IMG/VR virus record: IMGVR_UViG_3300022777_000060
From: a virus
Length of the DNA: 24,597 nt
Direction: 5' to 3' (one strand)
How positions within the stretch are numbered: position 1 is the first letter of the stretch; the number at the start of each line of letters is the position of its first letter. A program made the translations under genes and the position numbers. The notes beneath the pieces were generated by a model, which was given only the letters and a program-made list of their open reading frames with translations, was not told where the DNA came from and did no database searches. Positions 1-24,597 of the stretch are shown piece by piece.

Positions 1-287
1 TCGTTCTCTTTTTGTTCGCTTACTTTTCTTCCATATTTTGCTGCAGCCGTATGGCTTACATCAGCTTTTTCCTCGATCTCACTATAACTATGTCCTTGTT
101 TTCGCAGCTTTCTTATTTGCTCTATTTTTTTATCGGGTAACTTGTGCTGCTTTTTGCCGATGTCTTCAAGTCCTTCTTGCTTGCAGTGGTAGCTTATCGT
201 TCCCTTTGAACAACCAAGCTCTTCTTCTATTTCGTCATATGTTTTGTCTTGCTTTCGTAGTTTTACTATCTCTTCTTTGTAAGACAT
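1..287 (-). CDS. HTH-repeat protein, N-terminal part of a probable homing endonuclease (runs off the left edge); paralog of 21069..21767
   Basis: Manual translation MSYKEEIVKLRKQDKTYDEIEEELGCSKGTISYHCKQEGLEDIGKKQHKL... shares CSKGTISYHCKQEGLEDIGKKQ exactly with the 21069..21767 protein; absent from the ORF track because it is truncated. Confidence 0.85.
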   Translation of the reverse strand, partial: MSYKEEIVKLRKQDKTYDEIEEELGCSKGTISYHCKQEGLEDIGKKQHKLPDKKIEQIRKLRKQGHSYSEIEEKADVSHTAAAKYGRKVSEQKEN

Positions 288-376
288 GGCAGTTTTTTAC
301 TTGAACCCGATTCATTATTATATATGTTCGTGAGTTCAAATGTTCGGGTTCAAAAACAGTTTTACATAGTTTTCAA
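288..376 (-). promoter_or_regulatory. Conserved endonuclease leader: (T/C/A)(T/C)GAAC repeats, TATATAA box, inverted GTTCAA
   Basis: Aligns along its length with 21768-21859. Confidence 0.7.
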
Positions 377-404
377 CCGCTCTGTCCAACTGAGCTACGA
401 GGCA
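377..404 (-). pseudogene. 5' half of a tRNA (Arg-like, D-loop GGACA/A20), cut at the anticodon stem
   Basis: TGCCTCG TA GCTC AGTTGGACA GAGC GG followed by non-tRNA leader. Confidence 0.8.
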
Positions 405-1641: not shown

Positions 1642-1678
1642 CCGGGAGTTTTGGCGTCGGGATTTCACGCGTCTGTCG

Positions 1679-1712
1679 TGGATCGGGGAGGATTTGAACC
1701 TACCGAAGCACA
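1679..1712 (-). pseudogene. 3' remnant of an older tRNA-Tyr (variable-arm end, T-arm, acceptor 3' strand)
   Basis: TGTGCTTCGGTAGGTTCAAATCCTCCCCGATCCA aligns with the 3' end of the adjacent tRNA-Tyr, TGTGCTATGTGGGTTCGATTCCCTCCTAGCCCA. Confidence 0.75.
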
Positions 1713-1719
1713 AATAAAG

Positions 1720-1803
1720 TGGGCTAGGAGGGAATCGAACCCACATAGCACATAGGCAAGTGATTTACAGTCACCTGGACTCACCACACTGTCCAACTAA
1801 CCC
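1720..1803 (-). tRNA. tRNA-Tyr(GTA), bacterial type
   Basis: GGTGA-CT GTA AA-TCACT; G1:C72, A73, long variable arm. Confidence 0.92.
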
Positions 1804-2036
1804 TGTTTGTTTTCTCTTACTGAGTAATAGTACTCTTCCCAAGTGTCTCCAACTTGTTCTTCAAAAGTTTCTATGTCTTCCTTACCGATTTTTCCAGCGT
1901 GAAACAACCTATGGCAGTTTGGGCAAAGATAAGAGAGATTTTCGTGTCTATGCGGATTTTCAATCTCTCTTCCTTCTATATGGTGCAAATCTCCATGTGC
2001 TTCATTCCAACCACATCTACAACACCGATAATCCAT
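1797..2036 (-). CDS. HNH endonuclease (79 aa)
   Basis: CxxCG...LHHI...N(L)...LCPNCHRLFH motif; TAG stop lies in the tRNA-Tyr acceptor stem. Confidence 0.88.
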   Translation of the reverse strand: MDYRCCRCGWNEAHGDLHHIEGREIENPHRHENLSYLCPNCHRLFHAGKIGKEDIETFEEQVGDTWEEYYYSVRENKQG

Positions 2037-2037
2037 G

Positions 2038-2334
2038 TTATCTGCGCCGAATGTCAATGGCTTCTCCAGTGCGAATGAACACGAAGCTCTGAGCTAGCTC
2101 AAGCGAGCCGCTAATCGCTTCCAGCACAGGCGTCGGGGCAAGCCCAACGATCGTCTGAACGGTGCTCTTGACCTTCGCTGGCGTTCCAACACGAGCGGCA
2201 TTCCGAAGCATCGAAAGCGCCCTGTCTCCAGCCATCGTGTGGTCGAGACTGTCGACTCTGGATTCAAGCATTTCTTCGTCGTTCAGAACCGAATCCATGA
2301 GATCGTCCATCATTTCTTCCTTTTGCGTGTCCAT
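2038..2334 (-). CDS. Hypothetical protein (98 aa)
   Basis: ORF with acidic N-terminus, downstream of an ECF-like promoter. Confidence 0.75.
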   Translation of the reverse strand: MDTQKEEMMDDLMDSVLNDEEMLESRVDSLDHTMAGDRALSMLRNAARVGTPAKVKSTVQTIVGLAPTPVLEAISGSLELAQSFVFIRTGEAIDIRRR

Positions 2335-4863: not shown

Positions 4864-4883
4864 TTCTGTTTGATTGTGATTTG

Positions 4884-5339: not shown

Positions 5340-8178
5340 TGCTCTCGATTGGACTGACAGAAGTGTACCCAGGCGTGACTCGCGTCTTATAGAAGAAGTC
5401 TTCTCCTGTAGTCAGTCCCGAATGCGTCCAACTCACTTGTTGGTTTGAAGGCGCAATGACTTCCTTGATGACCTGAAATGATCCTCCAGAGTTCGGAGCA
5501 GCGAGAACTTCAATCTTCGTTATGTTTTCAGGGACGATGCTTGTAGAAGCTGTTCCCTTTATAAAGGTGTCCCCAACAGAGCTTATCGAAGTCGTTACGG
5601 TAACACTTCCTTGGTTAATCGCGGCTTCAAGCGGATCTTCCAAAAGTCCAGGATACCAAAGAAACTCTTGAATCGCACCCTTATAACTTTCGTCAACCGG
5701 AGCATGTTGATCAGTTCTTCCCCCTCCGTAGCTAAGACCAAGCCGTACGTTTCCACTCTCTTTATAATCAACATTGTGAGAAACGATTTGTTGCTGCCCC
5801 TCAACGTCGAGGAACAAAACGTCCTCATTCACTGCTGCCGTTATACTGATTTCATCTTTCGTGTCGTCATAGGTGGTAAACAACTCTTCACCATTACCCT
5901 TTCGGTAAATGCCACCACTCCCACTAAATCCACTCGCAGCCCAAAGTTCACCTTTATGGACATTGATTGCCTTCCAGCTAGAACCCGTACCAGAAAGACT
6001 GCTTTTCTCTAATGTTTGTCCGTCCCATTTCCAAACCCCTTCATCGCTGGAGTTACTGAAAAACTCTTCCGTGAGATAGAGATCGCCGTCATAAACAGCC
6101 GATCCAGCTCTGTAGCTAAGTTCTATGCCAGTGGAATCTTCAGAGAACGAAGTTTCGAAAGCTTGATTACCCTCATCTAATACCCCGCTTATTTGTGAAT
6201 CCAGATTTCCGCCAAAGGAAAAGACACTCAGAGTATTGAGTTCACCCTTGTAACTTGGCGCAGATCCCGGAGAATAAATCGGAACACTTTCAGTTTCCTT
6301 TATACCAAAGTCATATTCAAGCTGAAGTCCAGTTTCCGGTGTCCAAGAATACATTGCTCCCAAACCTCGAAGGTGATATCCTGGAATCCACACCTTATCA
6401 TTCCACACCCCCGCTCCATGAGTTCCGGAAACATTATTCTCAAATCCTCCGATTCGAGCAATGGCATTGTTTTCAAACTGTTCTTCGGAAATCGCTTGTG
6501 ACCATTGGTTTCCATCATACCGATGAAGGATCGGATTCTCTGAGTCCAAAAAGTATGCGTCGCCGCGAAAAATGAAGCTGCTGGTGATGTTCGACCCGAA
6601 CCGAGGAAACGCAGACTTTTCAAACGTCCGACTACTTGAATCCCAAGATGATGAAAGACTGTATTGCTTAACAGCGGAGTTTGTGGTTTCTACAGAATCC
6701 GGAATCGGATCACCTGGATCTACGTCCGGATTCTCTGAAGCCACATACAAGTTGTTCCCGTCTGATTTGAAAGCAACCCCCCAAATTCCAGTTCCTTCGA
6801 CATCATCCAAAACTTCATCTAGAGAGTATGTGTTTGTGCTACTAACACTGCTAATGTCCCAAGCGGTCGAAAAGTTCTTCTCTATCAGATCATCAAAAGT
6901 TCCGAAGTATGCCTGAGTACCGTCCGGCCGGAAGAACATTCCCGTGCTGTTATCATCTCCCCCTGTACCGAACGAGTTTCCAGTAAAGGAAGCTGAACTT
7001 GGATCCCAAGCGGTTGAAAGATTATAGCTATACACTCTTGATTCCAGAGTACCGGAACCATCTCTTTCGGACTTGATAAACATTTTCGTTCCATCCGGTT
7101 TAAAGGCAACGCCATTCGGAACCCCAACTTCAGAGTTGAAATCGTATTCCGTTACAAAGGAAAGACTCTCGACTTCCCAAGCTGTCCCAAAGTCAAACTC
7201 AGCAATCGTTCGGCTCTCACTTGTTGAAGCGCCTTTGTCACTTACCCAAATTTTCGTTCCATCCGGTTTAATGTAGCTACCCCCAATCTCTGTAAGCCCA
7301 CTGCTGTCCGATATTGCCGGGAAGGAGTTCCCCCCGACGTACTCTCCAGAGCCAATATCCCAAGGCGTAGAAAGATCGAACTGGTGGATGTTCTCGTCTG
7401 AAACGTAGAGCTTCGATCCGTCTGGTTTGAACTGGAGAGCGCCCCTTCCTTTGGGGAAAACCTGTTCAACAGTCCAGGACGAGCCGTTATACGACTTTAT
7501 CTGAGATTGGTTATCGTTTTGAGCCCAAAGATTCCCGTCATACACGATCATGTCTCCACGCAATGTGCTGCTGAATGCTTCCCCTTGATCAACACTTATA
7601 AGCTGCTCATTCTGTGGATCCCATTTACTGATTTTGAAGCTGCTGAAGTTGAACTTCGTGAAAAAATATACTTCCCCCTCATAAGACTTGATTCCAGCAA
7701 TCGCTGCGGGAACCGGAGTTCGAACCGCTTCAGCATCCAAATCCGGATTTGAGATTGTCGCGAAGATTTTTCCATCCCGTTCCCAAACTTCTAACCCATT
7801 TGAATTTACGATTGTTTGTGGAGACCCCTTCAAGTCATCAACATCGACTGTCAACTCTACGCTTTGTATTCTACTTTGGGAAACTCCAGACGCATTGCTG
7901 AACTCAACTTCGTATCCGTCCTGTTTCTGGCTCCAATTTACTGTTCCACCACCGCCGCTTGTTGCAAGACTTCCACTTTCGACGATTTTCGGATACCTAT
8001 CGAGAGCTGGAGCAAGGGCATTTCCACCTTCAGCAACTTGGTTAAGAAAACGAACTCGGCCGTCAGCATTCGAGTCCTGTTGCGTCACAAAAGACACAAC
8101 CGATCCAGATCCAATGTCGGAAACATTGAATGCTTGAACCGCTCCATCTGTGGATCTTCGAACTTCGATTGCAGACAC
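5332..8178 (-). CDS. Adhesin/receptor-binding-like protein A (split LamG, two nested beta-propellers, FN3), 948 aa
   Basis: FKPDG/LSTAWD repeats, YDGxxW repeats, YKGAIQEFLWYP LamG-like end, HSGLTTGEDFFYK FN3. Confidence 0.8.
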   Translation of the reverse strand: MSAIEVRRSTDGAVQAFNVSDIGSGSVVSFVTQQDSNADGRVRFLNQVAEGGNALAPALDRYPKIVESGSLATSGGGGTVNWSQKQDGYEVEFSNASGVSQSRIQSVELTVDVDDLKGSPQTIVNSNGLEVWERDGKIFATISNPDLDAEAVRTPVPAAIAGIKSYEGEVYFFTKFNFSSFKISKWDPQNEQLISVDQGEAFSSTLRGDMIVYDGNLWAQNDNQSQIKSYNGSSWTVEQVFPKGRGALQFKPDGSKLYVSDENIHQFDLSTPWDIGSGEYVGGNSFPAISDSSGLTEIGGSYIKPDGTKIWVSDKGASTSESRTIAEFDFGTAWEVESLSFVTEYDFNSEVGVPNGVAFKPDGTKMFIKSERDGSGTLESRVYSYNLSTAWDPSSASFTGNSFGTGGDDNSTGMFFRPDGTQAYFGTFDDLIEKNFSTAWDISSVSSTNTYSLDEVLDDVEGTGIWGVAFKSDGNNLYVASENPDVDPGDPIPDSVETTNSAVKQYSLSSSWDSSSRTFEKSAFPRFGSNITSSFIFRGDAYFLDSENPILHRYDGNQWSQAISEEQFENNAIARIGGFENNVSGTHGAGVWNDKVWIPGYHLRGLGAMYSWTPETGLQLEYDFGIKETESVPIYSPGSAPSYKGELNTLSVFSFGGNLDSQISGVLDEGNQAFETSFSEDSTGIELSYRAGSAVYDGDLYLTEEFFSNSSDEGVWKWDGQTLEKSSLSGTGSSWKAINVHKGELWAASGFSGSGGIYRKGNGEELFTTYDDTKDEISITAAVNEDVLFLDVEGQQQIVSHNVDYKESGNVRLGLSYGGGRTDQHAPVDESYKGAIQEFLWYPGLLEDPLEAAINQGSVTVTTSISSVGDTFIKGTASTSIVPENITKIEVLAAPNSGGSFQVIKEVIAPSNQQVSWTHSGLTTGEDFFYKTRVTPGYTSVSPIESSE

Positions 8179-8218
8179 GTATGCTTTTAGTTGTTGTTTG
8201 TACTGTGTTTATGTATCC

Positions 8219-11200
8219 TTACTTCAAGGTAATGCTATCATACCACATTGCGGCGTTAGGGAATCCGGAAGTTGCCCAAGCCTCTCCACCGAAACCTTTG
8301 AACTGGTGAAGTCGGATATCAGTAATATCTACGCCTTGCTGAAGTGATTGCGTTCCCGTTTTTGTAATACCGTCCGCAGTGTTCTCCCAAGTCCAGTTTA
8401 CTTCAGTGTTCCCCCAATCAAACTGTAGATTGACACGGTGCCACGTTTGGTATACGTTAGCTCCACCGCCACTCGAACTGTCGGTTCCATCAAACACCTG
8501 AATGATGTCTGTTTCGTTATCTGTCGGCGCAAAAACCCATTGCGGGTTGTTTGTCGCGACTCCAAGCTCTTGGTTTCCATTGGAGTTAAAAAACCGAACT
8601 CCGGATCCGGGTTGATTGCTCGTCTCGTAATAATAAAACTCTGCTTCCGAAATCTGCTGTGCTGAAGATAGGTTATGGGTTGCGTAAAGGTAAGTGGAGT
8701 TATTTGAAATATCGATCCCCCCACTCTGACTGCCTGCAAATACGTTATCAGTTTTGATTTGGAAGTCAGAGGTATCGACTGACCACTTGCTCAAGTTGGA
8801 TTCGAAGTCTTCATTCAAAATGAAGGCGGCGGCCGTGCTTACCTCGGTTTCTTCGGAAAGAGCTGTTTCGGTAGTGTCATTTCTCACCGCACTGACCTTA
8901 TAGAAGAAGTTCGCGTCAGCGGAAACCGACGAGTCTATGAAGTACTCATTCGTAACATTTGAGCTGCTTACCTCTGTGAAGTTGCCTCCAGAAGAGTCAA
9001 CACGATATACGTTGTAGTGACTAATGTTTGTGCTGTTTGTATCCCAACTGACCGTGACTTCAGTGTTGCCCGAATCAAACGATGTTTGAACATTTGTTGG
9101 AACCTCATACGTAACGCCCGGCGTATTGAACTGGATTCCAACCGCTTCGTCAGTTCCAGTACTCAACGTGTTCATCTCAGTCTTCGTCGTAACATCCCAA
9201 GCAGTCGTCATGAGGTTTTCTGTAATCGTTCCCCCAACTGTTGCTGTGTAAAATCGTGTGCCGTCTTCACGGAAGAACAGCCCGCCCGAAGGGTCGGAAA
9301 CGGATACTTTGTTCTGAAAACTCGCTGTGGAAATGTCCCAAGAGGTTCCAAGTGCGAAGCTGGCAACGTGTCCGGAGTCAAGCGTAGCATAAAGCTCATT
9401 ACCATCCGGTTTGAACGCAATGTCTCCGTTGATTACCTCGCCTGTCTGATTCGGATCATCAAGCGTTGCGGTTTGGTTGAAGCTCGCTGTCGTGATGTCC
9501 CAAGCACCCGATAGGTTGAATGCATATACGTCCATGCTTGACTGTTGAGAAATGAACATCTGAGATCCATCCGGTCGGAAAAATAGCCCATTCGGGTTGT
9601 CGGGGAATGTTGAGAACGTTGTGAGATCCAGAAAGTCGTCGTCATTTTGAGTTGTGAACGTCTCATACGCTTCCGTCAAACTAGCCTGAAACATAGCCGG
9701 TACATCATTCTCTGTATCCCGAAGGAAGAAGATTCGGGTTCCGTCCGACCGGAAGAAGAATCCTTGTGGAGAAAGAAGAACATCATCCGGTCCTCCAGCT
9801 TCTCCTGCGGTAAGCGCAAGATCAACGTTGATTTGAGAAACTTTCGCAGTCTTACTAAGATTCCAAGCATCTGTAATCCGGAAGTGTTGCAAATCTGGCG
9901 AGAAACTTGCTTCTCTGTCTAGGATGTAAGTACTGTTTGTCGGGTTCAGCTCTGCAGACTTGGTTGCGCTCTGAGCGTACTCAGTGCCACTCACTACAAT
10001 TCGGACATAGTAGAAGAACTCTCCGACCCCCGGAGTGTCCGTGTATCCAGTTTTAGAAGATACATTTGCTATTTGCGTGAACGTACCTCCAGCCGTGTCG
10101 GCTCGGTACACATTGTAAGAATCTGGAGTTCGAAGGTCGCTTACTGACCACGTAACTTCTATTTCTTTATCTCTTGCGTTTGCGTCGACATTGAAACTTT
10201 CGAATGTGATGTTTGATGGTTGCTGAGAAGCAGCCGCCGGAATGTTCGTGTTGAAGGATACGTCATTTGGAGGAAAGCTGAAACCTCGTGTTCGCAACTC
10301 AAGATTTGCGTCGTAGCTTTGACCGTATTCCAACTCTTCACTGGAAAGGTTATACTCGCCAATCATCACTGAATCAGACTCAGTGGTAAGCTCTTCTGCA
10401 GTCTGCTTGAAAGATACGTAGATTTCATTGTTATCAGTTACAAAGGAATCAGAGGTCGCTTCTGGATCTTCCGAAGCTGAATCTTGAAACACCTTCTGTA
10501 CGAACGTGAACTGATTATCGAACACATAAAAAGAGTCTCCAACAGTTTGTGATGAGCCCCCGATTGTAAACACAACGCCCCCATTTGGTTTCCAGCTTAC
10601 TGAAGAAGCCGGATCTCCACCGACTCCGGAAGAAAACCACTCCGGTCCTGTACTGAAAGAGCCAACACTGTTCAAAGAGTTATCCCAAACTTCAAAGTTC
10701 TCAGCTGCCGGATCATCGGCCGTATCGTTCATGCCAACAAGGTAGTCTGCATTCGGGCCGCTAAAGTTGTTCCATGCCGCAACACCAATTTTGGAACCAA
10801 AAGTACCAACGACGTTTCTGGCAGAATCAATAACCAAAAGACTTCCTCGGATGTTGTTGGCCGTGTTTCGCTGTAATGCATAAAAGGATCCGTCAGACTC
10901 CCGAAAGTCTATTTCGGTTATGTTTGCTTCTGTGGCAACGTTGCTGTAATCGATGTTCGCGATCCGATTGAAAGATGAGTCATAAAAGAATATCCGGTTT
11001 TCCGAAGTAGCCACCACCATTCGGCTGGTCGCTTCATGAAACGCGATCTCGGTCGCAAATGGAAGTGAGTTGTTGACTTCAAGACCATCACCTCCGGAAA
11101 AAACTTGCGTCAAAGCTCCAGTTTGTGAATCAATCGAATAGACCTGGATTGGCGCGAAGCCTGATCCCCGACCGACGACTCCAATATGCCCGTCTCCACG

Positions 11201-12115
11201 AAATGCTATTCCATTTACGCTATTCTGATCGATCGTGTCGAGAAGGTTGAAAGAAGTGTCCCAAATTCGAACTGAGCTGTTTGTGCGGGAAGCTATGAAG
11301 TTGCCGTTCCAAATGACTTCATTATTAGAGTTCGGGTCATTCCCTGTTCCATTAACCTGAGGATCACCGGATAGAAGAGCGGTTGTCGGACTTTCTGAAT
11401 AGAGAGTAGCGAGATCAATAGAAGGTGTAATCGACGTCGAAGTAACGATCGTATCTGACTCTTTACTATTCTGGAACGTCGATTGGCTGGACTTTTTCCA
11501 TCGAAGAATAGGTTTTGCAGCCTCAAGTTGGGAAAATGATGTCACTTCAACGTCGACCGTTTTCAGTGAAGGGGAAGAGTAGGTAACACTTGAAGTCCCA
11601 ACCTCTACACTGATCAAAGAACTGTCTTCAACTGGTGTGAACTGTGACGTTCCTCCAGCCGACAAAACTGATCGGACTTTATAGAACTTCTTTTCACCTT
11701 CCGAAATACTCGTGTCCGTGTACTGCGTCGATGTCGGTTCAGCGATTATTGAAAAAGTGCCGGTTTCGCTGTCGGATCGATGGACTTCATAACGATCAAC
11801 AAGACTCTCGTTGAATACGTCCCACGTAAGCGTTACTTCATTGCCAGCGTCGTCCGGATTTGTTTGCAGATTGACCGAACGCGCGCCGTCATCAAGCACG
11901 TCGTTTGCATCCCCCGTTTGCGTAAGGCTCCAAAAGATGCTCGGAGAGACTGTTTGAGGATCTGGCTGTCCACCGCTTGTGTCTCCACAACAAACAGCTT
12001 CCCAAGACCCGCTGATTTTGACGTACAGGCACTTGACGATCTCCCAGTTCCCGCCAACCTTTGTGTAGCCTTTTGGAACTCGTTGCCAAGAGCCGTCCTT
12101 GTAATATACAGCCAT
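8219..12115 (-). CDS. Large tail-fibre/adhesin-like protein (1298 aa): KxxGxW N-terminal repeats, FN3 domains, beta-propellers, C-terminal ConA-like domain
   Basis: Start MAVYYKDGSW placed after the terminator; FN3 motifs (YNVYR...YTD...FYKV); FFRxDG/AWDI repeats; EDFES...WYDSI lectin-like end. Confidence 0.8.
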   Translation of the reverse strand: MAVYYKDGSWQRVPKGYTKVGGNWEIVKCLYVKISGSWEAVCCGDTSGGQPDPQTVSPSIFWSLTQTGDANDVLDDGARSVNLQTNPDDAGNEVTLTWDVFNESLVDRYEVHRSDSETGTFSIIAEPTSTQYTDTSISEGEKKFYKVRSVLSAGGTSQFTPVEDSSLISVEVGTSSVTYSSPSLKTVDVEVTSFSQLEAAKPILRWKKSSQSTFQNSKESDTIVTSTSITPSIDLATLYSESPTTALLSGDPQVNGTGNDPNSNNEVIWNGNFIASRTNSSVRIWDTSFNLLDTIDQNSVNGIAFRGDGHIGVVGRGSGFAPIQVYSIDSQTGALTQVFSGGDGLEVNNSLPFATEIAFHEATSRMVVATSENRIFFYDSSFNRIANIDYSNVATEANITEIDFRESDGSFYALQRNTANNIRGSLLVIDSARNVVGTFGSKIGVAAWNNFSGPNADYLVGMNDTADDPAAENFEVWDNSLNSVGSFSTGPEWFSSGVGGDPASSVSWKPNGGVVFTIGGSSQTVGDSFYVFDNQFTFVQKVFQDSASEDPEATSDSFVTDNNEIYVSFKQTAEELTTESDSVMIGEYNLSSEELEYGQSYDANLELRTRGFSFPPNDVSFNTNIPAAASQQPSNITFESFNVDANARDKEIEVTWSVSDLRTPDSYNVYRADTAGGTFTQIANVSSKTGYTDTPGVGEFFYYVRIVVSGTEYAQSATKSAELNPTNSTYILDREASFSPDLQHFRITDAWNLSKTAKVSQINVDLALTAGEAGGPDDVLLSPQGFFFRSDGTRIFFLRDTENDVPAMFQASLTEAYETFTTQNDDDFLDLTTFSTFPDNPNGLFFRPDGSQMFISQQSSMDVYAFNLSGAWDITTASFNQTATLDDPNQTGEVINGDIAFKPDGNELYATLDSGHVASFALGTSWDISTASFQNKVSVSDPSGGLFFREDGTRFYTATVGGTITENLMTTAWDVTTKTEMNTLSTGTDEAVGIQFNTPGVTYEVPTNVQTSFDSGNTEVTVSWDTNSTNISHYNVYRVDSSGGNFTEVSSSNVTNEYFIDSSVSADANFFYKVSAVRNDTTETALSEETEVSTAAAFILNEDFESNLSKWSVDTSDFQIKTDNVFAGSQSGGIDISNNSTYLYATHNLSSAQQISEAEFYYYETSNQPGSGVRFFNSNGNQELGVATNNPQWVFAPTDNETDIIQVFDGTDSSSGGGANVYQTWHRVNLQFDWGNTEVNWTWENTADGITKTGTQSLQQGVDITDIRLHQFKGFGGEAWATSGFPNAAMWYDSITLK

Positions 12116-12161
12116 CGAAAGAAGAGTTGTACTGGTTCTGCTGATAAATATGAGCCGACAT

Positions 12162-12196
12162 AGAAAACCCCGCGACCCGAAACCGGACCACGGGGC
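12162..12196 (-). terminator. Rho-independent terminator downstream of tRNA-Leu(GAG)
   Basis: CCCCGTGGTCCG-GTTT-CGGGTCGCGGGG-TTTTCT. Confidence 0.8.
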
Positions 12197-12222
12197 AAAG
12201 GAACCAACCGACCAAAGTTGAG

Positions 12223-12306
12223 TACCGGTGGAGGGACTTGAACCCACACGCCCTCTCGGACACTGCGCCCTCAACGCAGCGCGTCTACCAATTCCGCCAC
12301 ACCGGC
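12223..12306 (-). tRNA. tRNA-Leu(GAG)
   Basis: CTGCG-TT GAG GG-CGCAG; long variable arm; A73. Confidence 0.95.
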
Positions 12307-15704: not shown

Positions 15705-15737
15705 TTGACAAAAAAGCCCGTAAGAAAGAAAATAAAG

Positions 15738-15814
15738 AGCCACCGGACGGATTCGAACCGCCGACTTCGCCCTTACGAGGGGCGCGCTCTGGACCGAACT
15801 AAAGCTACGGTGGC
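15738..15814 (-). tRNA. tRNA-Thr(CGT)
   Basis: CGCCC-CT CGT AA-GGGCG; U73. Confidence 0.95.
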
Positions 15815-15819
15815 TTGCA

Positions 15820-16020
15820 TTACAGGATGAGCCAGAGAAGCAAGGCGGTGATCATCAAGTACCCGATAACCATCGCCCAAAACATGCTTCTACCTGGCGC
15901 GCCGTGAGCGCCAAAAGCCGTAGGCTCGTAGAAGAAATAGTCGTACACTCGAAGCGCAACCCAAGCAGGAATGGCTCCAACGACCATCGCCGTCAAATGT
16001 GCCCAAACAAAGGTTCTCAT
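15820..16020 (-). CDS. Small 2-TM membrane protein (66 aa)
   Basis: Two hydrophobic segments. Confidence 0.7.
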   Translation of the reverse strand: MRTFVWAHLTAMVVGAIPAWVALRVYDYFFYEPTAFGAHGAPGRSMFWAMVIGYLMITALLLWLIL

Positions 16021-16023
16021 CAG

Positions 16024-16338
16024 TCAGTACTCCATTTCTTCAACTTCAAGTCCAAGCTCTTCGGCAAGGCTCGGGTCGCCGTCCGCAGACCAGGTCGTGA
16101 TTTCCGTGACTGGCGTTCCGTCTTCGCCACAGTAGTTCGGGCCGTTCTTGTAGTTCCAAACCACAAGAGGGCGTCCGGTGTCAGCATCCCTCACGTCCCA
16201 CTGAACGTCAATCTTGTACGTCTTTCCAGAAAGATCCTCTGGATAGCCGAGAGCGTCGACCAGCTCTTTGTAGCTGGCGTGGATCGTCATTGTTCGGCTG
16301 GTGCCGCCTGAACTGCCCTTTTGAATGTTCATGTTCAA
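16024..16338 (-). CDS. Hypothetical phage protein (104 aa)
   Basis: ORF track; GTS...ASY.EL...G.P...K.D..W pattern typical of small phage proteins. Confidence 0.8.
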   Translation of the reverse strand: MNMNIQKGSSGGTSRTMTIHASYKELVDALGYPEDLSGKTYKIDVQWDVRDADTGRPLVVWNYKNGPNYCGEDGTPVTEITTWSADGDPSLAEELGLEVEEMEY

Positions 16339-16367
16339 AAGTAAGTGGTTATGAGCAAAAGGTCAAG

Positions 16368-16443
16368 AGCACGGGGTGAGATTTGAACTCACGTTGACGC
16401 GGCTTTGCAGGCCGCCGCCTAAACCGGACTCGGCCACCCGTGC
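16368..16443 (-). tRNA. tRNA-Cys(GCA)
   Basis: GCGGC-CT GCA AA-GCCGC; U73. Confidence 0.95.
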
Positions 16444-16447
16444 ATTG

Positions 16448-16520
16448 AGGTGAGGGGTGGATTCAAACCACCGTAACAACCCTTGCGGGGCTGCGCCTAA
16501 TCGGACTCGGCCACCTCACC
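16448..16520 (-). tRNA. tRNA-Cys(GCA), atypical (C33, A19:U56)
   Basis: CAGCC-CC GCA AG-GGTTG; T-loop TTTGAAT; perfect acceptor stem; U73. Confidence 0.7.
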
Positions 16521-16592
16521 ATTGTTGTTACGTGCGTGTTTAATCGCTTGTTCCAGTGACTCGCACAACTTGTCGAAAACTTCAGCTTCCAT
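16497..16592 (-). CDS. 31-aa peptide resembling the HigA antitoxin N-terminal helix
   Basis: Manual translation MEAEVFDKLCESLEQAIKHARNNNGEVAESD*; fills the gap between the previous gene and the tRNA. Confidence 0.6.
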   Translation of the reverse strand: MEAEVFDKLCESLEQAIKHARNNNGEVAESD

Positions 16593-16596
16593 TGTC

Positions 16597-16788
16597 TTAT
16601 GTGATTATGGTCCAAGCTCCAACGAAGAAACACGCCACTGTGAAAATCCCAAACAGTAGGCAAATCATTCCGGAAACTTCTTTCGAAGGCTCAATGCCCA
16701 CTGCTCCAAGCAAAAACGCCAGAATCAACGTGAGCGGAGCACCTGCCCACATAAGCCCACGAAGCGTTTTTTCGAGAACCGAAAACAT
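16597..16788 (-). CDS. Small 2-TM membrane protein (63 aa)
   Basis: Two hydrophobic segments. Confidence 0.7.
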   Translation of the reverse strand: MFSVLEKTLRGLMWAGAPLTLILAFLLGAVGIEPSKEVSGMICLLFGIFTVACFFVGAWTIIT

Positions 16789-16790
16789 GG

Positions 16791-16979
16791 TCAGTTTTCG
16801 TGACTTGAGAAATAGTTCTCGCCGCTGATCGTTTCGGACTCTTCCCGAACGCCTTCCCGAATCTTTTGAGCAACTGCTTCTCGCGCCGCCTCTGATTCGA
16901 GATTCGCGTCACCGAACTGCTCTAAGGCGTCACGTGTAATATCGAGAAGGTCTTTCTCTTCAAAAAGAATCATTTCCAT
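16791..16979 (-). CDS. Hypothetical acidic protein (62 aa)
   Basis: ORF track. Confidence 0.7.
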   Translation of the reverse strand: MEMILFEEKDLLDITRDALEQFGDANLESEAAREAVAQKIREGVREESETISGENYFSSHEN

Positions 16980-17005
16980 ATCGGAGTGAGGAAGGTATAT
17001 TGTTG

Positions 17006-17081
17006 TAACCCCCCCGGGACTCGAACCCGGAAGCGTCGCGTTTTGAGCGCGACAGGTCTGCCAAATTCCCGTCAGGGGGCC
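17006..17081 (-). tRNA. tRNA-Leu(CAA) with short variable loop
   Basis: TCGCG-CT CAA AA-CGCGA; 5-nt variable loop; A73. Confidence 0.85.
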
Positions 17082-17091
17082 ATGTTATAAG

Positions 17092-19484: not shown

Positions 19485-19641
19485 GCAAACCCATAAACGG
19501 CAGGCTTCGCCGTATTTTCTTGTTTCAAGTGATTATCGGTCCAAGCAGCGTGCGCCTCCGTAAAGGAAAAGCACAAAACCACCGAGGACGAATACCTCAA
19601 ACATAAGGTTGGGTTTGCTTTTGAATGAGAAAGAAAGCTAG

Positions 19642-19717
19642 AGCGGCAGGTCGGATTTGAACCGACGGCCTCCAGCATGGCAAGCTAGCGCCCTAGACCG
19701 AACTAGACCACTGCCGC
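19642..19717 (-). tRNA. tRNA-Gly(GCC)
   Basis: CTAGC-TT GCC AT-GCTGG; G1C2G3, U73. Confidence 0.95.
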
Positions 19718-19956
19718 TTTTTTGAAGAGTACCCCCTTTCTTCTACGAGCCTCTGTACGGTAACTCCCCAAGGCTTCGGATCTTCAACAACGTCCCTGTC
19801 TCCAACCCGAAGCGATTTTCCGTTTCCTTCGCCGGGATGAATCTCTTTCTCTACTTTCTTTTTGCCACCATCTTCCACGACGACACAAGGCATGTTTGGC
19901 CCCCCATACCAACGGACATATACACGATCTCCGATTTCGAAATCAGAAAGGTTCAT
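19693..19956 (-). CDS. Hypothetical protein (87 aa)
   Basis: ORF track; stop lies inside tRNA-Gly. Confidence 0.7.
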   Translation of the reverse strand: MNLSDFEIGDRVYVRWYGGPNMPCVVVEDGGKKKVEKEIHPGEGNGKSLRVGDRDVVEDPKPWGVTVQRLVEERGYSSKKRQWSSSV

Positions 19957-19988
19957 AGCAAAATCAAACAGGTTGAGAAAGAAAAGAG

Positions 19989-20063
19989 TACCCCCGGAAG
20001 GATTCGAACCCTCGTCAGAACCGATTAGAAGTCGGTTGCCTATCCTGGCTCGGCCACAGGGGC
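19989..20063 (-). tRNA. tRNA-Arg(TCT)
   Basis: ACCGA-CT TCT AA-TCGGT; A20. Confidence 0.95.
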
Positions 20064-20073
20064 ATTTCGAATG

Positions 20074-20163
20074 TTATATATAGAGCAACGCAATCAAAGT
20101 TCCGAGAAGAGTACCAAGAATGAAAAGTCCAAGTGGCCACTCTTGTTTCAGGTACTCAAGCAT
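20074..20163 (-). CDS. Single-TM micropeptide (29 aa)
   Basis: MLEYLKQEWPLGLFILGTLLGTLIALLYI*. Confidence 0.55.
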   Translation of the reverse strand: MLEYLKQEWPLGLFILGTLLGTLIALLYI

Positions 20164-20380
20164 ATTCAGGTTGAACGAGGTTGCGTTGCTTTTGAGCAGT
20201 AGACCGTACGTAGACGAAAACCGCGCACCCGTTTTCGTACTGCCCGTTGAACTGGTATATCGATACCTTGTCACGGCTGTACATTCCGCCTTCTTTTGTC
20301 TGGATCTTGATCCGATCCGGCCGGTGATTGAACTTGAAGTGTTCGCTTGTGTGTTTGCCGCCATCGAGAACGGCGATCAT
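20156..20380 (-). CDS. Hypothetical protein (74 aa, start MIAVLDGG)
   Basis: ORF track 20156..20419 with an ATGA-coupled start. Confidence 0.65.
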   Translation of the reverse strand: MIAVLDGGKHTSEHFKFNHRPDRIKIQTKEGGMYSRDKVSIYQFNGQYENGCAVFVYVRSTAQKQRNLVQPEYA

Positions 20381-20466
20381 AGCAAACTGAAAAGCGTTAT
20401 GATTGCAACAAGAACGCAACCCACGGCAAATCCCGCAAGCATAGCGTGTTTCGTATCTCTACTCAT
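20377..20466 (-). CDS. Single-TM micropeptide (29 aa)
   Basis: MSRDTKHAMLAGFAVGCVLVAIITLFSLL*; ATGA overlaps on both sides. Confidence 0.6.
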   Translation of the reverse strand: MSRDTKHAMLAGFAVGCVLVAIITLFSLL

Positions 20467-20549
20467 ATCAGTATAAGCGTGTATAGCAAAAATGTCAAGG
20501 CCACGCCGACTGTAAACCCCGTGGCAAACGAGCTTTCCTTAGTCTTCAT
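20463..20549 (-). CDS. Single-TM micropeptide (28 aa)
   Basis: MKTKESSFATGFTVGVALTFLLYTLILI*. Confidence 0.55.
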   Translation of the reverse strand: MKTKESSFATGFTVGVALTFLLYTLILI

Positions 20550-20826
20550 GTTGGCTAAAGAACTCTTGAAAGCGCTCAAACTCTTCGCTATCCACCGTGA
20601 ACATCGTGTGGTCCCAACCTCCATGCCGTCCAGTGAACACGTACTTCAAAGCTTCCCAAACCCTCTTGTACCACGAAAGATACTCACGCATCTGAACGTG
20701 CATAGAGTAAAAAGCAGGAAAGTCGTCAGACTCTTCGTTACCTGAATACGTCACCCGTAAACTGTGTGCGTCAAGGTGACAGTCACAATCAAAATGCTCA
20801 GTCTTCAATGTTTCCTCGTGTTCCAT
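20539..20826 (-). CDS. Hypothetical phage protein (95 aa)
   Basis: ORF track; CDC...H and WYKRVWEALKYVF. Confidence 0.8.
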   Translation of the reverse strand: MEHEETLKTEHFDCDCHLDAHSLRVTYSGNEESDDFPAFYSMHVQMREYLSWYKRVWEALKYVFTGRHGGWDHTMFTVDSEEFERFQEFFSQHED

Positions 20827-20971
20827 AACCGATTTCTAGTTTTTGAGATTGATCAACTAGTTTTTGTAGTGCCTCAACTTGCTTTCTGGCCTCTTCGATC
20901 GCCTCTTCCATAGAATCAGACTCTCCGTGTTTGAGGCGTCTCAAAGCAATGTCGTGGATTGTGCGTTTCAT
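20798..20971 (-). CDS. Hypothetical protein (57 aa)
   Basis: Manual translation MKRTIHDIALRRLKHGESDSMEEAIEEARKQVEALQK... Confidence 0.55.
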   Translation of the reverse strand: MKRTIHDIALRRLKHGESDSMEEAIEEARKQVEALQKLVDQSQKLEIGYGTRGNIED

Positions 20972-20972
20972 G

Positions 20973-20992
20973 AGCCAGAAGCGAGATTTGAA
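20973..20992 (-). pseudogene. 3' remnant of an older tRNA (T-loop, T-stem 3' strand, acceptor 3' strand, U73; Thr-like)
   Basis: TTCAAAT-CTCGC-TTCTGGC-T, 1 nt after tRNA-Thr. Confidence 0.6.
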
Positions 20993-20993
20993 G

Positions 20994-21068
20994 AGCTGGA
21001 GGTCAGATTCGAACTGACGGATCTGCTAGATACCAACTAGCTGCCTTACCGAGCTTGGCCACTCCAGC
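20994..21068 (-). tRNA. tRNA-Thr(GGT)
   Basis: GCTAG-TT GGT AT-CTAGC; acceptor GCTGGAG/CTCCAGC-T. Confidence 0.95.
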
Positions 21069-21767
21069 TTACAAAACAAAATCTTTTGCCATTCTACACT
21101 CTTGTCCGTTTTTCGGAAGTTCTATTCTAAGGTGAAAACTGTGATGGCAGTTTTCAACTTCTTCAAACGGAACAAGATAACACTCACCCGTTTCTTTTGA
21201 GTATGTTGCAAAATAGTCTACTTGACCGTGATAAGTATAAGTTTTTCCACCCGATACACTACACGTTCTTATTTGAAGTCTTTCTCCATTTTTTGACTTC
21301 GGAGTTTTACATTGAACCCTCTGAAAGTTTTCGTTCTCATCTTCAAAAACAATGTCATATCTATCATTCTCTCCATAAGGTTCCAGCACAGTGTGACCGA
21401 GTTCAACAAGTCTTGTTGCTACTTTCAACTCGGTCAGGTCACCCTTATCTTTTTTATGTTGTGTCGGTCCAGAGTTCTCTTTTACTTTTCGGACTTTTTT
21501 CTTTTTATCTCCATACTTTTGAACCGTGCTTTCACTTACATCAAAGCGGTCTGCAGTTTGTTCTTTTGTATAGTTTTTGTAATATTCGCGTATTTTTTCT
21601 TGCTCTTCTTCGCTTATTTCTTTTTGCTTCTTGCCTATATCTTCAAGTCCTTCTTGCTTGCAATGGTAAGATATCGTCCCTTTCGAACAATCAAGCTCTT
21701 CTTTTATTTCGTTATAGGTCTTGCCTTCCTTTCGAAGTCGTATGATGTCTTTCTTATACTTGCTCAT
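21069..21767 (-). CDS. Tandem-HTH plus PD-(D/E)XK endonuclease (I-Ssp6803I / group I intron-associated PDDEXK_5-like), free-standing
   Basis: KGDLTE...PYGENDRYDIV...RVQCKT...VDYFATY...YLVP; two N-terminal HTH-like repeats; AT-rich relative to flanks. Confidence 0.85.
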   Translation of the reverse strand: MSKYKKDIIRLRKEGKTYNEIKEELDCSKGTISYHCKQEGLEDIGKKQKEISEEEQEKIREYYKNYTKEQTADRFDVSESTVQKYGDKKKKVRKVKENSGPTQHKKDKGDLTELKVATRLVELGHTVLEPYGENDRYDIVFEDENENFQRVQCKTPKSKNGERLQIRTCSVSGGKTYTYHGQVDYFATYSKETGECYLVPFEEVENCHHSFHLRIELPKNGQECRMAKDFVL

Positions 21768-21859
21768 TGAACTTTACTTATTTTGAACGCTCACTCAATA
21801 GTATATATAAACCAAACGTTCAAAGTTCGAGTTCAAACAGGACTTTACACAAAGTTCAA
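21768..21859 (-). promoter_or_regulatory. Conserved endonuclease leader with GTTCRA repeats around a TATATA box
   Basis: Homologous to 288-376. Confidence 0.7.
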
Positions 21860-21892
21860 AGAAGCGTTCTGGCCGAGCTGAACTATGCAGGC
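21860..21892 (-). pseudogene. 5' half of a tRNA (positions 1-31; Thr-like, but Val or Phe not excluded)
   Basis: GCCTGCA TA GTTC AGCTCGGCCA GAAC G CTTCT followed by the leader. Confidence 0.8.
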
Positions 21893-21897
21893 ATTTT

Positions 21898-22149
21898 CTA
21901 AAGGTATCTGAGCACAAGATACGCGTAAGCGTCGCGAAGAATCCGGTTGCTCACCTGTTCCCACGTTTCGTCTTGGTAATGAGCAACCAGATCTTGAACT
22001 TCTGCTTTCGTGATTTCAAGTCCGACGCGTTCGTCTCCGTTCCAGAACACCAAGGTTCCATCGGCGCGCCGAACCTCTATATCGGTTGGGCCAAGAGTTT
22101 CTTGAAACCCTTTGTGAAGCTCTTCAAATCGTTTTTGAATGTCAGCCAT
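21898..22149 (-). CDS. Hypothetical protein (83 aa)
   Basis: ORF track. Confidence 0.75.
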   Translation of the reverse strand: MADIQKRFEELHKGFQETLGPTDIEVRRADGTLVFWNGDERVGLEITKAEVQDLVAHYQDETWEQVSNRILRDAYAYLVLRYL

Positions 22150-22169
22150 AAAATTTGTATAAAAAGTCG

Positions 22170-22246
22170 TTGTCCCGGATAGATTTGAACTACCGCCCTT
22201 TCGCTTATCAGACGACTGCTCTAAGACCAGACTGAGCTACGGGACA
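22170..22246 (-). tRNA. tRNA-Ile(GAT)
   Basis: GTCGT-CT GAT AA-GCGAA; acceptor TGTCCCG/CGGGACA-A. Confidence 0.92.
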
Positions 22247-22260
22247 GTGTTTCGCATTTG

Positions 22261-22268
22261 TTATATAT
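22261..22268 (-). promoter_or_regulatory. ATATATAA box
   Basis: 14 nt upstream of tRNA-Ile. Confidence 0.55.
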
Positions 22269-22487
22269 GATTCAATATTCGCTACCACCGTTCCAAGCGT
22301 GCTCTTCACGCGAGTTGAATCCCGGAAGCACAAGATAGTTCGTGTCGTCTTGGAAGTCCATTGTTGTCCGCTTTCTTGTAACAGCGCCGGACGTTCCACG
22401 GATTTCATATCCGTCGATATGCCGCGGCAAGTTGCCTTGCGCCTTTGATGTACTCGGTTTCGTGATTTTTGATTAGCGTTCTCGGTT

Positions 22488-22715
22488 TCATGACAACGCT
22501 TTCGCAGCACCGATCTCAATCATGTTACCAAGTCCACATCCGATACCCACAGAAGCCCCGAAGCCAATCGCGAGCATTCCGACTGGAATGAACGTTGCCG
22601 TAAACGTTCCGAGAAGAAACGCAAGGATAGCCGCGAAAATCCCAACTCCAAAAATCTCTCCAAACGTATCAACGAACAAAAGGAAAATCGCGTACATGTT
22701 ATAGAAACCGTTCAT
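22488..22715 (-). CDS. Small membrane protein (75 aa)
   Basis: Strongly hydrophobic, Gly-rich. Confidence 0.7.
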   Translation of the reverse strand: MNGFYNMYAIFLLFVDTFGEIFGVGIFAAILAFLLGTFTATFIPVGMLAIGFGASVGIGCGLGNMIEIGAAKALS

Positions 22716-23343
22716 TTTGAAGTCTACTGGATTCGCCGTTGTTTTTGCTTCGATGCAAAAAGTTTTTGCTTCTCGAAGCCATCAAGTCTCGTTCAGCTCC
22801 AACTTTCGTTTCCATGATTTCTTCGTCAGAGAACTTGGCGTCGATCATTCCGTCAACGGTTTGTGGTTCTTCTTCAAACTTGAACGGCGCGATAAGCCGC
22901 TGGCCGATTTTCATCGGCTCATATGACTTCGGTTCAAAAAACGTCGGGGTTCCTCGCCAAAACGTTCCGGCATACCCATTTGACGAAACCTGTTTGATTT
23001 CTTTCTCTTCAAGTTCTTCAATCTTACGTTTCGCTCCCTCAAATGAACGAAACCCGTAAAGGCTCGGATACCTTATTGAAGTCTTCTGTGGAAAATTTTG
23101 AGTTTCCCAACCGTCTTTGCCATATGTGGAAGTTCTACACATTGTCCGGTAAGCAAACAGATCTCGCTTGATTGGGAAATAATCTCCCCCATACTCCACA
23201 ATCACATATTCCGGTTTTCGCTTAAACAGCATAAGCAGCCACCGCAACACAACTCGCGGTCCGGCCATAATAAGTCCAGTAATCAGTCCCGAAAGGCAGA
23301 ATGTTCCGAGAACTCCCAAAAATATTTCAACCAACATACTCAT
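22699..23343 (-). CDS. Membrane-anchored hypothetical protein (214 aa)
   Basis: N-terminal TM segment; ORF track. Confidence 0.8.
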   Translation of the reverse strand: MSMLVEIFLGVLGTFCLSGLITGLIMAGPRVVLRWLLMLFKRKPEYVIVEYGGDYFPIKRDLFAYRTMCRTSTYGKDGWETQNFPQKTSIRYPSLYGFRSFEGAKRKIEELEEKEIKQVSSNGYAGTFWRGTPTFFEPKSYEPMKIGQRLIAPFKFEEEPQTVDGMIDAKFSDEEIMETKVGAERDLMASRSKNFLHRSKNNGESSRLQNERFL

Positions 23344-23759
23344 ACCGTCTCAAACTGCTCTATTTTGTCGCTGTGAGCTTCTTTGTCGTGAGGATGGGGA
23401 ACGAGCCGATGATCGATTTCAGCCTCTCTCAGCCGCTCCAGCTCATTCATGTCGTCGTCAAAATGAAGGTCGCTTCCCAACTCTTGAAGCGTCGGAAGTT
23501 TGTCTTCCCCGTTCGTGAAGTGAACATCCCGCACTGGAAGAGAGTGTTCATCGATGAACTCAAACACTTCCTCACAGTTTCGGCGGTCACGTGTTGTCAC
23601 CACATGAACAGTATGCCCTTGACTCGCAAAACTCCGAACGAGTTCAAGGATATCCTCACGCGGCTGAGTGGATGACTCCCAAAACGTCGTGTCCTGCCAA
23701 GCGAAACTTTCCTTGACAGGTTTGGTAAGTGTGGAGTCGAAATCGAAAGTAACGAGCAT
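23340..23759 (-). CDS. HAD-superfamily hydrolase/phosphatase (capless type)
   Basis: Motif I FDFDSTL, motif II VVTTR, motif III K, motif IV LHFDDD; start at MLVTF. Confidence 0.85.
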   Translation of the reverse strand: MLVTFDFDSTLTKPVKESFAWQDTTFWESSTQPREDILELVRSFASQGHTVHVVTTRDRRNCEEVFEFIDEHSLPVRDVHFTNGEDKLPTLQELGSDLHFDDDMNELERLREAEIDHRLVPHPHDKEAHSDKIEQFETV

Positions 23760-23869
23760 GTTTCTACTTGCGGTTGATGCGGAGCGCATCAACTCTGCGC
23801 TCACGCTGGGCGGTGTCCGTCTCTTCGTTTTTCCGAATCTCACGAGATGATCCAGTGGATCGATCCATT

Positions 23870-24130
23870 TCAATCTTCATAAGGATCTGGAAGTTCTTTC
23901 CATGCGATCACAGTTGCGGATCCGTCCGATTGAAGCCACTCGTAGTTGTCGTTCCACACTTGCGGCAAAAGCGAAGATTGGAGAACTTTCCGCTCTCCGT
24001 CTTCTGCCTTGATTGCGGAATTGATCTCTACGGTCACGAGCACGTTTTCGTCCGGCTCGGGGTACGGCCCGTTCTTAACTTCTTCGGGCGTAATATCCTT
24101 TTGCTTGTCGGGAACCGTTGTCCAGCTCAT
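23870..24130 (-). CDS. DUF551-like phage protein
   Basis: MSW...PE...VLV...VIAWKELPDPY. Confidence 0.7.
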   Translation of the reverse strand: MSWTTVPDKQKDITPEEVKNGPYPEPDENVLVTVEINSAIKAEDGERKVLQSSLLPQVWNDNYEWLQSDGSATVIAWKELPDPYED

Positions 24131-24459
24131 GAATTCGGAGTGTGTGTCGGTTCGGGAAGATCGTTGGCGTTTGAGACTTCGTTCGCTCCCGCCACCGGAC
24201 CCCGGGCGAGGTTCGCGTTCTGAGTGCTCTGGAATGCTTCCTTCGTGTACAGCTCAAAGTAACTGCCGCCACGAAACTCTGTGTCACCGTTCAACAACTT
24301 CTTGGTGTCGAGGCGGTACGTCTTATCCCGCGTGGAATCCTCCACCGCGACCGTCTTTCCCGTCGAGGACGTTTTTCCCTCCACGATCGTCGGGGAGTGC
24401 ATGAGCCGCTGCACGCCCGAAATCAGAAGAATGGTTTCGTTTTTGGGAAGGTCAGCCAT
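24127..24459 (-). CDS. Hypothetical protein (110 aa)
   Basis: ORF track; first gene after an ECF-like promoter. Confidence 0.75.
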   Translation of the reverse strand: MADLPKNETILLISGVQRLMHSPTIVEGKTSSTGKTVAVEDSTRDKTYRLDTKKLLNGDTEFRGGSYFELYTKEAFQSTQNANLARGPVAGANEVSNANDLPEPTHTPNS

Positions 24460-24518
24460 TGTCTCAAGGTCGGTTGGTTGGAAAGTCTCTCAAGTCCCCC
24501 TCTTTCTAAATCCACTAC

Positions 24519-24546
24519 TTACACGCAACAAACGGCAGCCCGTTCC
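24519..24546 (-). promoter_or_regulatory. ECF-sigma-like promoter GGAAC-N16-CGTGTAA
   Basis: One of three copies with identical spacing. Confidence 0.65.
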
Positions 24547-24597
24547 GCAAGTTTTGTGAAGACTCTACGAAGTCGCAAGAGCGTAGATAATCATATC

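Follow-up and report, generated by a model that had tools for sequence, protein, structure and literature searches.

A nuclease gene and an intact tRNA-Thr(GGT) nested between the ends of another tRNA-Thr(GGT) gene in a viral genome fragment

Closest described systems

Homing endonucleases normally spare their host by hiding in a self-splicing intron or intein, or by sitting between genes. We have analyzed a 24,597-nt stretch of the virus record IMGVR_UViG_3300022777_000060 (the window), in which a nuclease gene and an intact tRNA-Thr(GGT) gene lie together between the two ends of another, broken tRNA-Thr(GGT) gene (the cassette, positions 20973-21892, minus strand). We consider it likely that a free-standing homing-endonuclease cassette has overwritten a phage tRNA gene at this site with a different copy of the same tRNA. 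This would be a third solution to the problem of sparing the host: the element inserts into a small RNA gene and supplies a functional but divergent copy of the same gene, at five or more tRNA isotypes of uncultured large phages. L-numbers below are the labels of the viral and metagenome contigs or loci used in the comparisons.

The T4 nuclease SegB is a free-standing GIY-YIG enzyme encoded in a tRNA cluster. It recognizes a T-arm motif, cleaves many tRNA genes at the 3' end if the phage lacks segB, and is inherited together with the neighboring tRNA genes (PMC2330249). The segB open reading frame (ORF) runs into the next tRNA, whose maturation severs the mRNA at the stop codon; a nuclease ORF pressed against a tRNA is a trait already known from this gene (PMC2330249). 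Association with phage tRNAs is widespread among SegB homologues, which can amplify tRNA genes and allow escape from a tRNA-cleaving defence (PMC13096335). The cassette is similar to this system in having a free-standing nuclease gene inside a phage tRNA array. Its nuclease, in contrast, combines a PD-(D/E)XK domain with helix-turn-helix (HTH) modules, whereas the GIY-YIG enzyme SegB lies between intact tRNAs, and no broken same-isotype tRNA enclosing a nuclease and a replacement copy has been described there.

A second relative is I-Ssp6803I of Synechocystis, a tetramer with a 23-bp pseudo-palindromic target (PMC3384342). That target is the anticodon region of a tRNA gene in the account of Bonocora and Shub (2001), as cited in PMC3984707. 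The catalytic domain of the cassette nuclease is homologous to I-Ssp6803I, and its putative target is likewise a tRNA gene. I-Ssp6803I, however, has 151 residues and no HTH, and is encoded in a self-splicing group I intron. The phage protein contains two additional HTH modules, its gene lies in no intron, and in the cassette a second tRNA gene would take the place of splicing.

Intronless homing is an established pathway in which a free-standing nuclease cuts a conserved neighboring gene in genomes that lack the nuclease, and repair copies in the nuclease together with the resistant allele of the donor (PMC3984707). With T4 SegF and SegG the sensitive allele is cleanly replaced through flanking homology; in the cassette, by contrast, the insert is still flanked by both ends of the presumed sensitive target, an RNA gene of 75 nt. 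The nuclease gene of MobE, in Aeromonas phage Aeh1, stands free inside a ribonucleotide reductase gene, with no intron or intein, and the pieces of that gene still make a working protein. The split tRNA of the cassette would instead be dead, and another, intact copy would supply its function. Integrative elements directed at tRNA genes also offset the damage by bringing tRNA sequence, with a recombinase, a precise attachment site and a near-identical 3' part only, whereas the cassette encodes no recombinase and carries a complete, divergent tRNA. In a literature search of incomplete coverage, no description was found of a nuclease and a same-isotype tRNA nested in a broken tRNA gene, nor of free-standing HTH-fused relatives of I-Ssp6803I in phage tRNA arrays.

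The broken and the intact tRNA-Thr(GGT) genes

All features of the locus are on the minus strand, and they are given here in the order of transcription. An 83-amino-acid (aa) ORF matching no family (21898..22149) is followed after 5 bases by an orphan tRNA 5' half of 36 nt, which covers tRNA positions 1-34 (21892..21857). A non-coding leader of ~89 nt (21768..21856) precedes the 232-aa nuclease ORF (21767..21069), whose TAA stop (21071..21069) directly abuts G1 of the intact tRNA-Thr(GGT) (21068..20994, called by ARAGORN and by Rfam with 56.8 bits). A single base separates this tRNA from a 20-nt 3' scar (20992..20973) corresponding to tRNA positions 54-73, that is, the T-loop, the 3' strand of the T-stem, the 3' strand of the acceptor and U73. 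A 57-aa ORF starting at 20971 (20798..20971) lies beyond the scar, and was used together with the 83-aa ORF as a synteny anchor. U73 is also present in both Thr tRNAs of the window, the intact tRNA-Thr(GGT) and a tRNA-Thr(CGT) found by Rfam (15814..15738, 53.6 bits).

The original prediction, made from the letters of the DNA, had already described the 0-nt junction between the stop codon and the intact tRNA, the scar 1 nt past that tRNA and the U73 shared with both Thr tRNAs, and these points were confirmed. Two of its boundaries had to be moved. The 5' half had been ended at 21860 (position 31), while the 35/36 identity with the L001 tRNA carries it to 21857 (position 34); the leader, given as 92 nt, is consequently ~89 nt long.

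Neither the half nor the scar scores as a tRNA alone in ARAGORN or Rfam. When compared with 455 tRNAs, the half matched the tRNA-Thr(GGT) of L001 (E=4.5e-14) and the scar matched the 3' end of a tRNA-Thr(GGT) (E=1.9e-5). The first 20-mer of the half occurs once in the window, with 0 occurrences expected. The half equals L001:6252-6287 at 35/36 positions, the identity ending after the first anticodon base (position 34), and the scar equals the 3' end of the L010 tRNA-Thr(GGT) (L010:888-963) at 20/21 positions, versus 17/22 for L001. L010 and the window are syntenic again ~250 nt beyond the scar. Positions 35-53 of the tRNA are gone between the two fragments. Judged by these matches to genes of related phages, both fragments are derived from tRNA-Thr(GGT) genes that belong at the Thr locus; the isotype of the broken tRNA, which had been left uncertain, is therefore Thr(GGT). 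We have also considered the scar as a repeated motif and rejected this, since a similar 11-mer at 15828..15838 lies within a coding ORF and the match count equals the chance expectation.

An uninterrupted allele of the site was present in L001-L005. In these contigs a single intact tRNA-Thr(GGT) begins 8 nt after a homologue of the 83-aa ORF (70% identity; 57-87% among all the homologues), with no second tRNA-Thr(GGT) beside it, and downstream there is a 49-aa ORF that is similar, as judged by eye, to the 57-aa ORF of the window. This is the empty allele that had been predicted, with one intact tRNA between homologues of both flanking ORFs and the same 5' bases as the half. Its anticodon is GGT (Thr), the same as that of the intact copy in the window.

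We refer to the tRNA-Thr(GGT) genes of L001 and L010, and to the broken gene of the window, as type A, and to the intact copy in the cassette as type B. The L001 and L010 alleles are 79% identical to one another, whereas type B is 56-59% identical to them. The two types have the same anticodon loop, and their D arm and anticodon stem are different throughout. The pairs G1-C72 and C2-G71, as read from the alignment, are kept in both. These two pairs, together with the anticodon, are threonine identity elements known from E. coli. Type B is, by this comparison, functionally equivalent to type A, and at the point of the break in the resident gene its DNA sequence is very different. The half is closest to L001 and the scar to L010, which explains the two acceptor mismatches in the window. 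Such a mixture would be expected after transfer between lineages with one crossover close to the cassette.

The same identities bear on the possibility that a nuclease-driven segmental amplification, or tandem tRNA duplication, was followed by decay of one copy, as with SegB and tRNA-Tyr in phage T6. SegB makes tandem repeats of tRNA and nuclease through microhomology (PMC13096335), and the window contains same-isotype tRNA pairs for Pro, Tyr, Cys and Leu. After a recent duplication, however, the two copies would be nearly the same, and after an old one the half would no longer be pristine; types A and B are as divergent as given above (56-59% identity), while the half shows 97% identity with the orthologue from a phage in which the flanking protein has 70% identity. 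Moreover, the broken copy encloses the intact one and does not lie side by side with it, so that we regard duplication as a very unlikely origin.

The position of the left junction, after position 34 and inside the anticodon loop, would suit a decayed group I intron, in which a nuclease once encoded within the anticodon loop of tRNA-Thr, like I-Ssp6803I in tRNA-fMet, outlived its ribozyme. Known cyanobacterial tRNA introns sit in the anticodon loop, and the nuclease family would fit as well. Rfam, however, matched neither a group I intron nor any other intron or ribozyme family with E values up to 1 in window positions 19500..24597, in line with the intron-less element first described. The non-coding part is only ~89 nt long and is common to family members as a leader, the 3' exon would be incomplete, lacking positions 35-53, and a complete second tRNA inside the "intron" would have no explanation. 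Intron decay has in our judgment next to no chance of being the origin of the locus.

The Thr site was occupied in different ways among related contigs. L006 and L007 represent the same phage as the window and carry the cassette. In L011, which comes from the same sample as L007, the homologue of the 83-aa ORF is 87% identical and a tRNA starts 3 bases after it; this start is type B-like over the 18 nt that precede the contig end, and no nuclease or half comes before it. L012 has no tRNA at the Thr site. By this set of contigs the site is polymorphic, with an intact tRNA only (L001-L005), a type B-like start (L011) or the cassette (window, L006 and L007). Type B appears to exist also without the nuclease, which weakens the word "cargo" that the original prediction had used for it. 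The part of that claim concerning a divergent tRNA of the same isotype stands, with the same isotype and anticodon in both types; "cargo" is perhaps too strong, as type B may have been native to the donor lineage and have come in by co-conversion, in the manner of classical intronless homing.

From the family membership of the nuclease and from this polymorphism, we infer cleavage of type A, immunity of type B and transfer of the cassette. During a mixed infection, related phages would have their type A genes cut by the nuclease within the anticodon arm or close to it, and the break would be repaired from the cassette-bearing genome, with the nuclease and the type B tRNA being copied in together. 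The retained half, the scar and the neighboring genes would serve as homology arms. Type B, which is presumed to stay uncut and differs in the D arm and anticodon stem, would restore decoding without splicing. If so, type A and type B genes would offer natural pairs of presumed sensitive and resistant targets for specificity studies. The process would also show in concrete mechanistic terms how tRNA alleles can turn over rapidly in phage tRNA arrays; interest in this subject has grown since a role in escape from tRNA-cleaving defences was ascribed to SegB (PMC13096335).

Recurrence of the nested layout

Homologous nuclease genes were found at 14 loci with readable flanks (L054 is cut by a contig end). 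The nuclease and an intact tRNA are fully nested between matching tRNA halves in 7/14 loci, and a fragment is present on one side only in six others (L013, L133, L135a, L135b, L137a and L139b), as the original prediction called for. A strict automatic screen for nested remnants, applied to 123 ORFs with the HTH module, returned 4 loci versus 0 in the control; the manual count is higher because many scars have decayed T-loops.

One of these loci belongs to the same phage as the Thr cassette. At the edge of the window (404..1, minus strand), a 5' half (404..374) and a homologous leader precede the start of a paralogous nuclease (287..1), and L014 continues this sequence (paralogue P0021) with the order half, leader, nuclease, tRNA-Arg(GCG) and 3' remnant. 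The paralogue is 43% identical to the nuclease of the Thr site, and its TAG stop in L014 coincides with positions 8-10 of the intact tRNA-Arg(GCG).

The window also supplies the uninterrupted allele of a sister cassette, because its intact tRNA-Cys(GCA) (16367..16443, minus strand) stands where L053 carries an insert. L053 is collinear with window positions 17086..15725, except for an extra 104-aa ORF of the window (16024..16338) downstream of tRNA-Cys. The insert of L053 has 925 bp and contains the rest of the 5' half, the leader, the nuclease and another tRNA-Cys(GCA), giving the order half, leader, nuclease, tRNA-Cys(GCA) and scar. This scar agrees with the window tRNA-Cys at 28/29 positions.

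In the remaining nested loci the intact tRNA comes before the leader and the nuclease. The order is half, tRNA-His(GTG), leader, nuclease and remnant in L015/L055 and in L139a, with G-1 opposite C73, and the same order is found around tRNA-Gly(GCC) in L137b and tRNA-Gly(TCC) in L140. The acceptor strands of half and remnant pair at 7/7 positions in L014, L053, L015, L139a, L137b and L140 (chance probability ~0.001 each). At all eight loci where the broken tRNA could be assigned, its best match was the isotype of the adjacent intact tRNA, an agreement that cannot be due to chance, since the comparison set holds about twenty isotypes. The broken half and the intact copy are 38-72% identical over the same positions across loci. 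Taken at face value, the nested layout at Thr, Arg, Cys, His and Gly tRNAs looks like a recurrent strategy by which such elements enter small useful genes while the function of these genes is kept. For annotators, tRNA halves beside nuclease genes would be meaningful scars and not noise.

Several observations weigh against replacement by a mobile cassette, and they have to be set against the anatomy of the locus, its uninterrupted allele, the isotype match and the recurring layout, all of which can be read directly from the sequences compared. The acceptor strands of the half and the scar at the Thr site pair at 5/7 positions, as had been counted originally, which is weak evidence alone (chance probability ~0.07). 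The nearest uninterrupted allele is in a phage whose flanking protein is merely 70% identical, and no otherwise identical genome without the cassette turned up among the relatives. For L014, L133 and L139a, the isotype was assigned from short matches in which the D arm, a widely conserved part of tRNAs, predominates. The exact break point differs between loci, the nuclease of L142 lies beside an intact tRNA-His with no remnant, and in L011 the type B-like start has neither nuclease nor half before it.

The last three of these points also speak for ordinary intronless homing with co-conversion, in which type B would be the native allele of the donor beside its nuclease, and the type A fragments would be leftovers of imprecise microhomology repair instead of a selected nested design. 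In L011 the type B-like start comes right after the homologue of the 83-aa ORF, L142 has the nuclease and an intact tRNA without remnants, and the order of tRNA and nuclease varies between loci together with the break points. T4 SegB acts in this way in its tRNA cluster (PMC2330249). Against such leftovers stand seven independent loci, at five isotypes, where matching 5' and 3' remnants enclose nuclease and intact tRNA alike; besides, the remnants, once formed, would be homology arms, and the unit would move nested anyway. Co-conversion of this kind differs from replacement by a cassette mainly in origin and selection, not in mechanism, and we judge it unlikely, although it is the main alternative.

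The nuclease, its leader and the wider HTH family

The 232-aa protein matched PF11645 over residues 104-228 (E=1.9e-28; 99.6 bits, cut-off 26.1), and its N-terminal part matched HTH_23, HTH_38 and HTH_7. These matches bore out the HTH-HTH-PD-(D/E)XK architecture read from the translation, with the two HTH modules at the N terminus. A profile built from 18 homologues matched I-Ssp6803I (PDB 2OST) with E=2.9e-14. Residues D138, Q152 and K154 are invariant in the 18 homologues and align with the D, Q and K stretch of 2OST, and a catalytic role is assumed for them by analogy. By this domain content, the gene is a free-standing homing-endonuclease-like gene of the I-Ssp6803I type. The family, known from cyanobacterial introns, would thereby come to include free-standing phage genes that have gained DNA-binding modules. 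No GIY-YIG match was obtained for the nuclease in Pfam or PHROGs; the cassette would act in the manner of SegB without belonging to the SegB family.

Similar HTH modules occur in IS30/IS630-type transposases and in invertases, and tRNA genes are classic integration targets. The protein could on these grounds be seen as a transposase- or integrase-like enzyme that inserts into tRNA genes and restores their 3' ends, as integrative elements do. The only protein gene of the cassette, however, carries no recombinase catalytic domain (DDE, serine or tyrosine), its invertase/resolvase matches being confined to the HTH modules, and its catalytic domain matches a characterized homing endonuclease. There are no terminal inverted repeats and no target-site duplication, and the junction positions differ between loci. 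A transposon-like insertion is highly improbable in view of these features.

The locus has no close relative among 50,697 deposited phage records, in which all matches were tRNA-sized. Scans of viral contigs with the flanking ORF, the nuclease, the 5' half, the 5' half of the sister cassette and the type B tRNA gave no match. A protein search of the phage records returned relatives that were mostly nuclease-domain-only or HTH-only, with one full-length match in an unannotated 484-kb uncultured phage. In the tree of the nucleases there is a His-associated and a Gly-associated cluster, the Arg-associated nucleases are not resolved, and the Thr nuclease is sister to an Ile-associated one. By this pattern, nuclease specificity is not simply inherited.

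Regarding L142 (LR756508.1, a 484-kb uncultured phage), its full-length nuclease homologue occupies positions 1201-1935, after the intact tRNA-His. In the standard bacterial code the frame meets a stop after 57 codons, and the protein match continues beyond it. Possible explanations are a pseudogene and a phage that translates a stop codon as sense.

The leaders of eight nuclease loci, the Thr locus and seven others, align with a mean column identity of 61%. They contain repeated 7-nt motifs in both orientations and an A/T-alternating box ~35-45 nt before the ATG. The alternating nine-mer of this box occurs 4 times in the window (316-324, 2577-2585, 20074-20082 and 21802-21810) versus 0.06 expected, and two of these copies lie in the two nuclease leaders. 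No sigma-70 promoter match was obtained in a scan of the leader; the leader probably holds a phage-type promoter, for which the box is a candidate. With regard to RNA structure, the leader of the window folds slightly better than its shuffles (z=-1.7, weak evidence), and folding of the leader alignment gave one 7-bp helix with almost no covariation; neither the comparison with shuffles nor the alignment fold revealed a convincing structure. With what appears, from the conserved leader and its shared A/T box, to be an upstream control region of its own, and with no intron or intein, the nuclease would be expressed as a free-standing gene.

The two-HTH module is common to more than 100 distinct metagenome ORFs, mostly with other C-terminal domains. 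A tRNA was found within ~3 kb of 91/105 of the ORFs with the module, and the tRNA started between -40 and +15 nt from the stop codon in 44/105. At a recurring offset of -10, the stop codon of the ORF (TAG) is the conserved U8-A9-G10 of the tRNA. The module might define a large superfamily of nucleases (PD-(D/E)XK, HNH and others) resident in phage tRNA arrays that routinely overwrites phage tRNAs with divergent same-isotype copies, and that would be a main source of unusual anticodon-arm and D-arm variants in phage tRNAs and, through these, of phage escape from tRNA-cleaving host defences. We offer this broader view tentatively and hold it to be rather doubtful. If true, the nuclease would be a partly domesticated exchanger of tRNA alleles and not purely selfish.

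In L019, an ORF without the PD-(D/E)XK domain has matching orphan tRNA ends on both sides. Within the window, a small HNH ORF (1797..2057, minus strand; PF01844, E=9.6e-5) ends inside a tRNA-Tyr(GTA) (1803..1719). A tRNA 3' remnant (~1712..1678) lies about 7 nt past this tRNA, and no 5' half is visible upstream of the HNH ORF.

Elsewhere in the tRNA region of the window, positions 2904-12274 hold three long minus-strand ORFs (543, 948 and 1351 aa). None of the three had a PHROGs match, and the 543-aa ORF had no Pfam match either. Counts of tRNA genes made with one program are too low here: Rfam alone detected a tRNA-Ile(GAT) (22246..22170, minus strand, 59.4 bits) and the tRNA-Thr(CGT) mentioned above, both of which ARAGORN missed.

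Three contigs carry two members of the nuclease family within 1.5 kb of each other, namely L135 (82-784 and 1501-2247), L137 (872-1636 and 1908-2624) and L139 (1201-1950 and 2360-3118). The first member in L135 (82-784) is split by a frameshift, and the first nuclease ORF of L137 extends ~32 nt into an intact 84-nt tRNA(CAT).

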